The position numbers and the translations under genes are program-made. Source: Acidobacteriota bacterium (GTDB taxonomy: Bacteria; Acidobacteriota; UBA890; WLXD01). From it: 64,000 nucleotides of DNA. Where the stretch lies: the NCBI GenBank assembly GCA_963666215.2, contig CAXWPL010000005.1, forward strand, positions 32,001-96,000, read 5' to 3'. Positions 40,642 to 44,413 of this stretch are shown here, in pieces (the stretch's first letter is position 1; each line of letters starts with the position of its first letter). The notes beneath the pieces were generated by a model. It did no database searches. It was not told the origin of the DNA and worked only from the letters and a program-made list of their open reading frames with translations.

Positions 40642-40670
40642 AGGAAACCGTAGAACGGGCACTGAAGCTC

Positions 40671-41759
40671 CTATAGATCGCAAGCGGGGGAGAGAGATTC
40701 TTCCGTGTCGCGTGGTGGTGGGAGGAGGTTGTAGACCTCGCGGGCAACGTAGCGCTTGAGGCAGCGGATGATTTCCTTCTTGGAGAGGCCTTCGGTGGTG
40801 CGGCGCTCCACGTAAGCGATGGTTGGCACGTGCCATCGCATCCGGACGATCACAGCGCGGTAGAGGGCGGTATTGGCCTGCCGGTTTCCCCCTCGGTTGA
40901 GCCGATGGCGGCCGCCGGTCTTGCCGGATCCGGCCGGTATTGGGCAGACGCCACAGAGCTTGGCGAAGGCCGCTTCGGAGCGGATCCGGTCGGTGTTGTC
41001 GCCGGCAGTCACGAGGAGCTCGCCGGCGATATCGGGCCCGATCCCGAACGCGTCGAGCAGGCGGGGTGCAGTCGCGGTAGTGAGTTTCTCCAGGCGTTTG
41101 GTGTGGGTCTTGATCTCCTCGTGCAGATCAAGCCACCGTCGGGCGAGCGAGCAGAGCACGTGACGCATCGTCACGTTGGGATCAGCCGGGTCCCCGTCGC
41201 CGTCGAGCCCGACACAGGTCGTCATCAGCTTATGGTCGCTGAGCGGTTCCAGCTTCGCTCGCAACTCATCGGAGGCCGTCACCAACGTCGCCTTGAGCGT
41301 CACGATCGCCTGGGTATGGGCTTTCACGGCAGTGTTGCGGGCGATCCGGGTGAGGCGGATCGCCTCAACGGCACCGTCGGAGACCTTGGGAGTTGCCGTG
41401 GCCTGCCCGGCCAGGACCTGACGGGCTGCATGTTCGGCGTCGATCGGATCGCTCTTACCGGCGAGGCGGCGTTGCCCTGCTCGAGGTGGCCGACTGACCT
41501 CGATCACTGTCTGTGCGTGGCGCCGCAAGAACCTGGCAAGGCCCATTCCGTAGCTGCCGGTCCCCTCCACCCCGAAGACGTGGACACGACCCAAGGTCTT
41601 GGCCCACGCCAACAGCCCCGCGTAGCCGCTGTTTGTGACCGAGAGGTAGTACTCGCCGAGACGGCCACCAAGGCCGTCAATCACGACGGCGACGTGTTCG
41701 TCCTTGTGAGTGTCGACACCGACGATGACATCGGTGCGCTCGAGTGCGATGCTGGACAT
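40671..41759 (-). CDS. IS110-family DEDD recombinase/transposase, intact
   Basis: GVDTHK, GVEGTG, KSDPIDA (DEDD), PAGSGK serine, RLNRGGNRQAN; AGGAGG RBS. Confidence 0.95.
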   Translation of the reverse strand: MSSIALERTDVIVGVDTHKDEHVAVVIDGLGGRLGEYYLSVTNSGYAGLLAWAKTLGRVHVFGVEGTGSYGMGLARFLRRHAQTVIEVSRPPRAGQRRLAGKSDPIDAEHAARQVLAGQATATPKVSDGAVEAIRLTRIARNTAVKAHTQAIVTLKATLVTASDELRAKLEPLSDHKLMTTCVGLDGDGDPADPNVTMRHVLCSLARRWLDLHEEIKTHTKRLEKLTTATAPRLLDAFGIGPDIAGELLVTAGDNTDRIRSEAAFAKLCGVCPIPAGSGKTGGRHRLNRGGNRQANTALYRAVIVRMRWHVPTIAYVERRTTEGLSKKEIIRCLKRYVAREVYNLLPPPRDTEESLSPACDL

Positions 41760-41935
41760 GGCTGTTGGCCTCCTTCACGGGTCAATGGTCCAGCTCGTCG
41801 GTCGGGCGGCCAGGACAAGACTGTGATGGGACCTGTTCAGATCAGGCTCCTATGAGGTCACTGCCCGTCCGGCTGGCGAGCAGCCTGATCGGTGCGCCAC
41901 CCCAGCCGACCGACAGGTCAGTGCAAGGACACCAC

Positions 41936-43344
41936 GGGGATGTCCCACCGTCCGTTGAACTAAGGCGACGGTGAAGTGGTTGGGGATTGTTACGCAGTAC
42001 GGCGCTCCTGCTCAAGGTGAGCGTCGACGGCGGCGTTCAGTGCGGCATCGAGCTTGGCGATGTCGCGGTAGCCACGGACCCTCCGGAAGTGGCTCTCGGC
42101 CTCGATGAGCGCGGTAACCGCCCATCGAACGATCATGCTCCCGGAGCGCCATCTCTTTACGTTGCGGCTGACGTGTTTGATCGTGCCGTTGAGATTCTCG
42201 ATCGTGTTCGTTGAACGCAACGTTCGAAGCAGCGGCCCCTGCACTCCGAGCCGGGTGACGGTGAGCGTCTCTTGCATTCCTTCTCTGAGCGAGGCCGCGG
42301 CACCCGGGTGATCCGTCTCCAGCTCTTTGGCCACGGCGTCGAGCTGCTTGGTCGCTGCCGCTGCCGTCTCCGCCTTCCAGGCCTTGCGGATCTTCGCCGC
42401 GAACCAGGGCCGGATATGCCCTGGCAGATGTTCCAAGACGTTCTTGATCTTGTGGACACGGCAGCGCTGGATCAGGGCCCACTCGCCGAACGTGTCGCGC
42501 ACTGCTTTACGGAGGCCCTTGGAGCCATCGATTACCACCAACCGCGCCCGTTCGACGGGCATGCCGCGTTCAATCAACTGCCGCAGCAGCGATCGGCACA
42601 CACGTGAACTCTCGGTGGTGCCTTCTACGACGCCCAGAACATGCTTGACGCCGTCCGTATCGATGCCCATGGCGATCACCAACAGGTGCTTGCCCATGTG
42701 CGTACCGTCGATCACCAGCACCGGCAAGTCCACCTCGTTGAGTGGTTGGGCCAGGTACTGCTGCACCTGCCGGGCGGTACGCGCTACGAACCGCCGCGAC
42801 ACACTCGAGCGACTCGTCCCGGATGAAGTTCGGCCTTCGGGCAGCTGCTCCAACGAGCGCTCATACTTGCGCGTCGTGACGCCGCACAGGATCTGCTCCA
42901 CGGCGCGCTCTTCGAGCGGGTCGGTGGCCTTGAACCTCTCCCAGTGCGGCAGCGGCAGCTCTTGGCCATCGACGCTCCGAGCCCGCGGCTTGCGTACCTT
43001 GACCCGCCGGCCGCCCATCACCAGCGAGCCCTCGTCGTAGCCGTGTCGGTACGCCCGCCGCTGCTGTGACCGTGCGTGGCGTTCTCCGCATAGCTCAGCT
43101 CTGTCTTCTTCCAGCAGCGAACCCAACACCCCGAAGCCCGCGTCCATGACCAGCGCTCGTAGATCCGATCGCGCCGCTACCACTGCCTCCAGGAGCGGGT
43201 TCTCTTGGCGCTCCGCTTTCCTACTTGTCTCTGTTCTGCGACTCTTGCTCATGACGGTGATCCTCCATGCCAGTGGATTGACCCCGACACACTATCGAGG
43301 TCGGATCACCGTCACCCTTTTTCAACGGAGCCTGTGACATCCCC
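41936..43344 (-). mobile_element. IS256-family element, copy B, intact
   Basis: Same IRs as copy A; 8-bp TSD GACACCAC (41928-41935, 43345-43352). Confidence 0.95.
41990..43252 (-). CDS. IS256-family transposase
   Basis: LVIDG, VIDGSKGL, QRCRVHK, STNTIENLN. Confidence 0.93.
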   Translation of the reverse strand: MSKSRRTETSRKAERQENPLLEAVVAARSDLRALVMDAGFGVLGSLLEEDRAELCGERHARSQQRRAYRHGYDEGSLVMGGRRVKVRKPRARSVDGQELPLPHWERFKATDPLEERAVEQILCGVTTRKYERSLEQLPEGRTSSGTSRSSVSRRFVARTARQVQQYLAQPLNEVDLPVLVIDGTHMGKHLLVIAMGIDTDGVKHVLGVVEGTTESSRVCRSLLRQLIERGMPVERARLVVIDGSKGLRKAVRDTFGEWALIQRCRVHKIKNVLEHLPGHIRPWFAAKIRKAWKAETAAAATKQLDAVAKELETDHPGAAASLREGMQETLTVTRLGVQGPLLRTLRSTNTIENLNGTIKHVSRNVKRWRSGSMIVRWAVTALIEAESHFRRVRGYRDIAKLDAALNAAVDAHLEQERRTA

Positions 43345-43465
43345 GACACCACGGTCGGTCAACTTATCGGTCAGGCCGACCGGAGCAGCGCCCCAGCATC
43401 ATCACAGTCAACTTAACTTTCCGAACCTTGTCCCCGGGCAATCTTGCTTCGAGGCAGACCGCTCT

Positions 43466-44164: not shown

Positions 44165-44204
44165 GGCCGTACTCTGTCAGCAGCGCCTTTAAGTTGACAG
44201 TGCC

Positions 44205-44413
44205 CCTCGAACGGCCCCCGTCGGCAGCTTCCCATCCCCGCTCGATGTCGGCGACGATCGCTCCAGGGCAGCGGGATCCATGGGCGCCGCGGACGACGCT
44301 TCCTCGTCAGGGATAGGTACCGCCTGACACGCCGCCGCTGCGATCATCGCCAACCCGAGCAACGATCCAGCGAGGTCTCTTGGCTTCACGCTCATTCCCA
44401 CCATCTCCTTCAT
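44205..44413 (-). pseudogene. 5' remnant of a lipoprotein gene truncated at the IS6 end
   Basis: Lipobox-like LAMIAAAAC; an adjacent frame reads IVADIERGWEAADG (NTF2-like by my reading) and stops at the IS6 IR. Confidence 0.4.

Follow-up and report, generated by a model that had tools for sequence, protein, structure and literature searches.

Among the insertion sequences of the IS110 family, those of the IS1111 group encode a seekRNA at their 3' side, that is, a guide RNA downstream of the gene, and IS4321/IS5075 insert in the terminal repeats of Tn21-type transposons. The bridge RNA and the recombinase of IS621 are a system of Escherichia coli (PMC11208160, PMC11208158), of which the two reports give the following picture. 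The top strand is cut after position 9; each right guide is followed by two bases that can pair with the other DNA, the so-called handshake; and before each guide there are a flipped-out A, at seven bases, and a syn G, at two bases, which are read by Tnp domains (PMC11208158). The donor sequences of IS621 are reported to be more conserved than its targets, and in the IS110 family a promoter is described as being re-formed across the end-to-end junction (PMC11208160). For ISCro4 / IS622 (PDB 9t56) a CT or GT dinucleotide core at positions 8-9 and a requirement that the cores of donor and target match are reported (bioRxiv 10.1101/2025.05.14.653916), and for CazIS110-1 of Caloranaerobacter azorensis integration mainly via the top strand is reported (bioRxiv 10.1101/2025.10.25.684509).

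We analysed a stretch of 64,000 nucleotides from an Acidobacteriota bacterium, hereafter the window, to which all coordinates refer; the features described below lie on its minus strand. This strand holds a three-level nest, with an IS256-family element inside an IS110-family element inside an IS6-family element. In the left non-coding end of the IS110-family element, upstream of a gene for a recombinase of the DEDD/serine type, positions 41796..41878 very probably represent the donor-binding module of a bridge RNA, as delimited by the consensus fold of 37 relatives. A previous sequence-only reading of the locus had proposed a donor-binding loop matching both ends of the element, and this is supported here by the end matches themselves, by the fold of the 37 relatives, by target guides that track the flanks of each insertion, and by the resemblance of the recombinase to that of IS621.

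The outermost element of the nest comprises an IS6-family transposase gene (44164-43466, Pfam DDE_Tnp_IS240), an intact left terminal repeat, GGGCACTGTCAACTTAA (44205-44189), which matches the rejoined flanks of the IS110-family element at 17 of 17 positions, and a right repeat split by that element (43416-43408 and 40664-40657). The whole IS110-family element occupies 40664..43406 (2,743 bp), as given by the reconstruction of the IS6 repeat and by the junctions of the family, with the single shared C assigned to its right end; without the IS256 insertion and one 8-bp duplication it measures 1,326 bp, and it is present as a single copy in its genome. The IS256-family insertion (41936..43344, 1,409 bp) carries a Mutator-type transposase gene (43252-41990). 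Its terminal repeats match each other, and the 8-bp duplications GTGGTGTC flank it on either side (43352-43345 and 41935-41928). It splits the left end of the IS110-family element directly after the small inner hairpin of the target loop, so that the left target guide lies on one side of it and the right target guide, donor module and recombinase gene lie on the other. The IS256 insertion is the last of the three, and it split the guide RNA and stranded the IS110 element: this copy is disabled in its target loop, with the donor loop and the recombinase gene intact.

The genomic context was also surveyed. The 4.65-Mb genome (contigs C1-C5) holds 27 further near-full-length copies of the IS256-family element, each aligned over at least 1,390 bp and with approximately 94-99% identity. 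The 14-base target of the IS110-family element has four exact copies in the genome, at 44189-44205 of the window (the intact IS6 repeat), C2:760907, C4:599777 and C4:963255, and 11 copies within one mismatch; none of these exact or one-mismatch sites is occupied by IS110. Two more IS110-family recombinase genes were identified in the genome (C5:1579507-1579929 and C5:1320316-1320735, PF01548 above the cut-off), with open frames of 416 and 419 aa and no DNA similarity to the IS110 element of the window. The stretch is present in public runs of 12 studies, whose readable labels are marine or sediment metagenomes. Among the joints listed for four public runs there was none skipping IS256 or IS110 and no end-to-end joint, and no intact or circular form was seen in them, the reach of the contigs being uninformative either way: in runs X2, X4 and X6 the contigs enter IS256 by 28 letters from each side, the bridging rule being 31 letters, and in run X10 one contig piece ends at 43408 and another at 41822.

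The recombinase gene (40671..41759) encodes 362 aa with matches to Pfam PF01548 (E 1.4e-17) and PF02371 (E 8.5e-17), and its product aligns to PDB chains of IS621 (E 5.5e-6) and ISCro4. The candidate catalytic residues are D16, E65, D104, D107 and S278. In the alignment to the IS621 chain 8wt6_A the D, E, D and D positions as well as the serine of the SG pair are preserved, the comparison using what we presume to be the catalytic residue numbers of IS621. Additionally, a candidate -35 box, TTGCGA (40678..40683), precedes the right end, and a candidate -10 box, GATGAT (43403-43398), lies in the left end; after circularisation of the window copy the two would be separated by 17 nt. A box of the TTGAC or TTGCG type is kept approximately 14-15 nt before the right end in the relatives, in which GAKSAT is conserved in the left end. 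By analogy with what is reported for the family, a promoter may be rebuilt over the joined right and left ends.

The donor module is closed by an outer stem (5' strand 41878-41857, 3' strand 41816-41796) that encloses the donor loop. From its 5' side the loop presents TGACC (41856..41860; as GTGACC, 41861-41856, invariant in 37 of 37 relatives), TC (41855-41854) and the left donor guide ATAGGAGC with an invariant C (41845..41853; the 8-mer at 41853-41846, the C at 41845). There follow the inner hairpin (41830..41843), whose 3' strand ends in GGTCC (41833-41829), the right donor guide CATCACAG (41821..41828), UC (41819..41820), which is a candidate handshake guide, and the closing TTGTCC (41818-41813). 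The right end of the element is composed of ATAGGAGC, TT (N and T in the family) and the shared C (40664..40674, namely 40674-40667, 40666-40665 and 40664), and the TAG stop codon of the recombinase gene (40673-40671) falls inside this ATAGGAGC. The left end, CTGTGATG, spans 43400..43407, the C at 43407 being the shared base. Thus, ATAGGAGC at 41853-41846 is identical to the right end at 40674-40667 and, having the same sense, would bind the bottom strand; the left end at 43407-43400 recurs in reverse complement as CATCACAG at 41828-41821. The strings of the donor loop as originally read, which span 41870-41813 within 41800-41875, and the four coordinate claims made with them were all correct.

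Relatives of the element were collected in two scans. A genome collection yielded 79 loci with 56-92% protein identity, nearly all from environmental MAGs, and metagenomes yielded 80 more loci with a maximum of 78% identity; proteins at 89-93% identity to the recombinase also exist (P0001-P0004). In the first set plus the window the donor-loop pattern was found in 76 of 80 loci, corresponding to 63 distinct rows, and in the metagenome set a stricter pattern matched in 48 of 80 loci, or 43 distinct rows. All these counts derive from a pattern-based extraction in which some rows are mis-anchored and in which the left-end pattern presupposes GA. The left donor guide 8-mer equals the right-end 8-mer in 54 of 55 distinct rows of the first set, and its one variable position (A/G) is concordant with the right end in 55 of 55; in the metagenome set guide and end are equal in 33 of 38 rows, some of the misses being mis-anchored pattern matches. 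With respect to the right guide, its variable R position is concordant with the Y of the left end in 60/61 rows (first set) and 34/37 rows (metagenome set). The complementarity to the left end that had been claimed for the whole of the right donor guide holds at 8 of 8 bases in the window copy, but six bases alone are conserved in the family, TCACAG (41826-41821), complementary to the shared C and TGTGA. An eight-base guide was rejected, as positions 1-2 match the left end in only 4/61 rows of the first set and 10/37 rows of the metagenome set. These two positions look like a linker, and the full match of the window copy is probably in part fortuitous.

A FastTree tree of 78 recombinases was used to count independent switches of guides and ends. 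The state of the right guide and that of the left end each require 10 parsimony changes on this tree, and the switch of the right guide is represented by three well-supported independent pairs only, which is not significant: in most of 200 random pairings all three pairs were concordant, and in none did the left end change the opposite way. The A/G switch of the left guide is a single event on the tree. Single-base variants of the left donor guide are rare, occurring in four loci, and show no covariation with the ends; the visible right end is still ATAGGAGC in L117 and L134 and is disturbed after ATAGGAG in L111, and a search for the right end of L169 did not find it. A relation of the right donor guide, through its first three bases, to the three bases that close the right end was considered and discarded as inconsistent across loci. 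The connection of the donor loop to the ends therefore rests on identity and a few events, not on rich covariation, and such thin covariation of the donor guides fits the higher conservation of donors than of targets reported for IS621 (PMC11208160). In several loci from Vicinamibacterales (L051, L052, L054, L058, L064, L065 and L070) the right end lies more than 260 nt past the stop codon, leaving an unusually long 3' non-coding stretch.

The target-binding module is found on both sides of IS256. Its 5' half (43345..43390) includes one strand of the outer stem (43390-43370), the TGACC of the target loop (43373-43369), the left target guide and the inner hairpin (43356-43345). The left target guide, the 9-mer TAAGTTGAC (43366-43358), begins two bases after TGACC and is identical to the left flank (43415-43408) followed by the shared C. 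In the 3' half (41895..41927) are the other strand of the outer stem (41914-41895) and the right target guide, the 7-mer GCACTGA (41924-41918), whose reverse complement, T, C and AGTGC, is read across the right junction (40665-40659). Across the first set the left target guide matches its flank at a mean of 6.88 of 9 positions, against 4.57 when shuffled (maximum 5.25 in 1,000 shuffles), and the right target guide at a mean of 5.89 of 7, against 4.71. The match is perfect in 20 of 59 rows, distributed over at least seven different target classes, and the pattern is replicated in the metagenome set. The guides TGYTAYGAC and GCGTTGA go with an IS3-type site, and GCCGCAGAC, TCCGACGAC, CAACTTGAC, TAACTTGAC and AGTAATGAC each match their own left flank, as do the matching right guides their right flanks. 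At the level of comparative sequence, this tracking shows the architecture to be that of a working guide system in the clade, of which the donor loop would be the twin.

The insertion sites of the relatives are themselves informative. Most of them (L021-L099 and L100-L179; for example L037:1977-2771 and L046:1690-2754) sit at one YD/NA codon boundary, the slash marking the junction, and this boundary is where, in IS3-type transposase genes, the rve domain ends. To judge from these flanks, the clade looks like one of insertion sequences preying on other insertion sequences. A second group, formed by L079-L099 (Vicinamibacterales MAGs) together with L126 and L127, occupies sites like GTTAACTTGA/C/AGTGCC in many copies per genome, and such sites are almost identical to the IS6 repeat hit in the window.

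An alignment of 37 distinct left ends produced a two-module consensus (RNAalifold), from which four pairs, joining the left donor guide to UCCU after the right guide, were removed and 41 were kept. These 41 pairs form 6 helices and are paired in 93.5% of cells, versus 27-42% when the partners are slid. Compensatory change is seen in 26 of the 41 pairs, in 183 cells versus 66.6 expected, and none of 500 shuffles reached any of the fold measures. The left end of the window copy, once rejoined across IS256, agrees with 43 of 45 consensus pairs; in its first module 43390-43370 pairs with 41914-41895 to give an outer stem that spans IS256. The inner hairpin of the donor loop corresponds to helix 6, with 4 pairs of which 2 show compensatory change, and helix 5 (GAC/GUC) is paired in 100% of cells, without variation. 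A single-sequence fold of 41775-41905 was unremarkable (z -0.73), its minimum-energy structure missing the consensus, and an Rfam search gave no bridge-RNA match, only a chance snoRNA-like hit inside the recombinase gene. Regarding the four pairs removed, 37 of 37 relatives allow pairing between AGGR, in the left donor guide, and the invariant UCCU that follows the right one (columns 190-193 with 232-235 of alignment A1, corresponding to 41850-41847 with 41820-41817 in the window), and the A-to-G change in AGGR retains a G-U pair. Such pairing may reflect a free loop that closes on itself, or may be coincidental.

A different explanation of the end-sequence repeats is that they act as DNA, either as subterminal protein sites or as a regulatory 5' leader, without a guide RNA. 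The donor-loop sequences are nearly invariant, as a protein site would also be. However, the flanking helices maintain their pairing through the compensatory changes described above, and these, occurring on both sides of the helices, argue for RNA structure; moreover, the target loop swaps both guides along with the insertion site, and use of such an RNA by the homologous IS621 has been demonstrated experimentally (PMC11208160, PMC11208158). We consider an action as DNA to be improbable, and retain the bridge RNA as the preferred interpretation.

Within this RNA, the sequence-only reading had drawn attention to TGACC as a motif shared by both loops two bases before the left guides, and expected its conservation among relatives. 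Both points are confirmed: the motif occurs at 41860-41856 and 43373-43369, and each of the two loops keeps TGAC unchanged in 37 of 37 aligned relatives. The notion of a free loop motif did not stand, since the predicted fold pairs GAC with an invariant GUC at the 3' side of each loop, that of the donor loop being in UUGUCC (41818-41813), with the U predicted as bulged. The GAC/GUC closing helices are without variation across relatives, and so the pairing is predicted only. When all guides are considered, TGACC-NN precedes the left target guide and the left donor guide, TGTCC-TT precedes the right target guide, and GGTCC-CN precedes the six conserved bases of the right donor guide. On the predicted fold, TGACC is one of four related [U/G]G[A/U]CC motifs located at the helix ends that frame the loops. 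By analogy with IS621 the four are likely to be recombinase contacts; the first base of [U/G]G[A/U]CC also stands seven bases before the guide, as the flipped-out A of IS621 does.

The boundaries of the element can be established from its host. Read in reverse complement, the intact IS6 left repeat agrees at 17 of 17 positions with the succession of left flank (43416-43408), one C and right flank (40663-40657). From this reconstruction it follows that the IS110 element carries ...ATAGGAGC-TT at its right end and that exactly one C is common to the joined ends and the target. In the relatives, the flanks rejoin mostly as ...G-D-S-Y-D/N-A-L-A-E across the insertion point, which includes the YDNA motif that we take to be typical of IS3-family transposases; in 6 of 6 relatives tested, the left flank codes for HTH_21 and rve, with rve ending at the junction. 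The one-nucleotide core suggested in the sequence-only reading is thus upheld by the IS6 repeat and by the gene frames of the IS3-type sites, and the circle junction predicted in the same reading is the one that the boundaries found here would give. Terminal inverted repeats are absent, the ends CTGTGATG and ATAGGAGCTTC being unrelated, and so is a target-site duplication, given that rejoining the flanks restores the IS6 repeat with just one C. An identical CT dinucleotide core of the IS621 kind, which takes part in all four guide pairings, is likewise absent: one C is shared, preceded by T in the donor and by A in the target. The donor T was found in 38 of 38 rows of the metagenome set, in which this position was unconstrained, and the target A in 59/59 and 36/36 rows, a count partly fixed by the search pattern. 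Also, the stop of the left donor guide 3 nt short of the junction, first remarked in the window, is a family trait: the 8-mer is followed by N, T and C in 38 of 38 metagenome rows, for which the search pattern left these three bases free, and the first set has N, T and C after the 8-mer throughout, with N being G in 27 rows, A in 19, T in 8 and C in 1.

In an opposing interpretation, an IS621-like CT core would be present: the right end would stop at ATAGGAG, the core would be at 40667-40666, the right flank would start with TCAGTGC, and the left donor guide would reach the core. The window copy does have CT at both junctions (43407-43406 and 40667-40666), and its right target guide GCACTGA is complementary to TCAGTGC. 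Nevertheless, the intact IS6 left repeat gives a target of ...GTTGA-C-AGTGCCC without the extra TT (17/17), and the base after ATAGGRGC varies in the relatives in the proportions just given, so that CG, CA and CC are found as well. Furthermore, counting the extra bases as target would add a codon inside the conserved YDNA motif of the IS3-type flanks. The CT core was rejected on the IS6 repeat reconstruction and the variable base after the right-end 8-mer, and we regard it as very improbable, the single shared C being the boundary adopted here. That the end matches arose by chance in GC-rich non-coding DNA is scarcely conceivable: in 100,000 mononucleotide shuffles of 41800-41875, compared with a 41-nt segment around each end, single 8-mer matches were not rare (direct to the right end in 3,408, or 3.4%; inverted to the left end in 4,149, or 4.1%), but both in the observed order appeared in 67, and the same arrangement recurs in 76/80 and 48/80 loci of other organisms.

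The possible working of the element can be envisaged by analogy with IS621. Upon excision, the right and left ends would join. The left donor guide stops two bases short of the shared C, and the crossover would occur just 3' of this C. A second module upstream would read the target likewise, here the IS6 terminal repeat. The UC after the right donor guide would have to await strand exchange before pairing, its partner being the GA located ahead of the crossover in each target. At the left junction T replaces C in four rows of the first set and three rows of the metagenome set, and the right junction has C in every row with that end located (55 and 38); the variants on one side and the constant C on the other indicate that the retained crossover lies immediately 3' of the shared base. 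The left flanks end in GA in 59/59 and 36/36 rows, a result that is partly circular because the left-end pattern begins with GA. The UC after the right donor guide is invariant and complementary to the GA of the target, and with both partners invariant there is no covariation. By analogy, UC is a candidate handshake guide for the invariant target GA.

In the numbering of IS621, position 9 is the shared C and position 8 is A in the targets and T in the donors. The terminal A of the right target guide is complementary to the donor T but not to the target A; for the U that follows the right donor guide it is the target A, and not the donor T, that is complementary. From these pairings we infer that position 8 would behave as a handshake base and not as core. 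The N of the right end showed no consistent complementarity to the second base after the right target guide in the first set. A two-base staggered exchange would leave a mismatch at position 8, and half of the descendants would then have the other base. Junction products with that other base were not seen, among rows for which the left-end pattern and the first right-end pattern would have missed them. The natural junctions located are of the top-strand product only (59 and 36 at the left, 55 and 38 at the right), their uniformity being partly fixed by the search patterns. We arrive at a tentative proposal, which may well prove wrong: the clade, widespread and found in Actinomycetota, Vicinamibacterales and other MAGs, might recombine at a single shared nucleotide, with the deliberately unlike neighbouring base (T in the donor, A in the target) read only by the opposite loop once exchange has taken place, with the left donor guide set back by two bases, and with replication completing an integration that involves the top strand alone.

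As regards this genome, the outcome is one of ordinary annotation. Bridge RNAs are in development as programmable recombinases, with design rules derived almost wholly from IS621 and its close CT-core relatives. The clade could relax these rules, if one shared base suffices, and could refine them, if the adjacent base acts as a handshake position and if a gap of two bases between the left donor guide and the crossover is tolerated. It also bears on whether integration ends by bottom-strand exchange or by replication; the top-strand-only reading, if true, would constitute comparative evidence against a two-base staggered Holliday resolution in the clade. The prey of the clade would comprise the YD/NA codons of IS3-type transposase genes and IS6-type terminal repeats.

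How does this system relate to those already described? As in the IS1111 group and in IS4321/IS5075, the element of the window belongs to the IS110 family and has a fixed insertion place in the terminal repeats of other elements. In contrast to the IS1111 group, its guide RNA lies upstream of the gene, which places the element in the IS110 group. ISCro4 / IS622 and the system of the window have the same recombinase fold family and the same logic of loops and, as proposed here, of the handshake, although the clade of the window is without the dinucleotide core. Its junctions fit a top-strand crossover 3' of the shared C, a likeness to CazIS110-1 suggested by the junction sequences. The closest parallels are with IS621. 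Both systems have a recombinase of the DEDD plus serine type, a left-end RNA that contains two internal loops, left guides in the top-strand sense and complementary right guides, a left target guide of 9 nt and a left donor guide of 8 nt, and conserved nucleotides that recur four times before the guides; both are without terminal inverted repeats or target duplication. Yet the similarity of the proteins is weak (E 5.5e-6), and the two differ around the crossover. Donor and target share one C in the clade of the window and CT in IS621; the base before the shared C differs (donor T, target A), and it is the non-cognate loop that matches it; and the left donor guide stops two bases short of the shared base, that of IS621 extending to core position 8. 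Where IS621 has a flipped-out A and a syn G, the clade presents the four-fold motif [U/G]G[A/U]CC. Judged by its junctions and loops, the core geometry of the clade differs from the IS621 model, and the system is a variant of the bridge-RNA kind.
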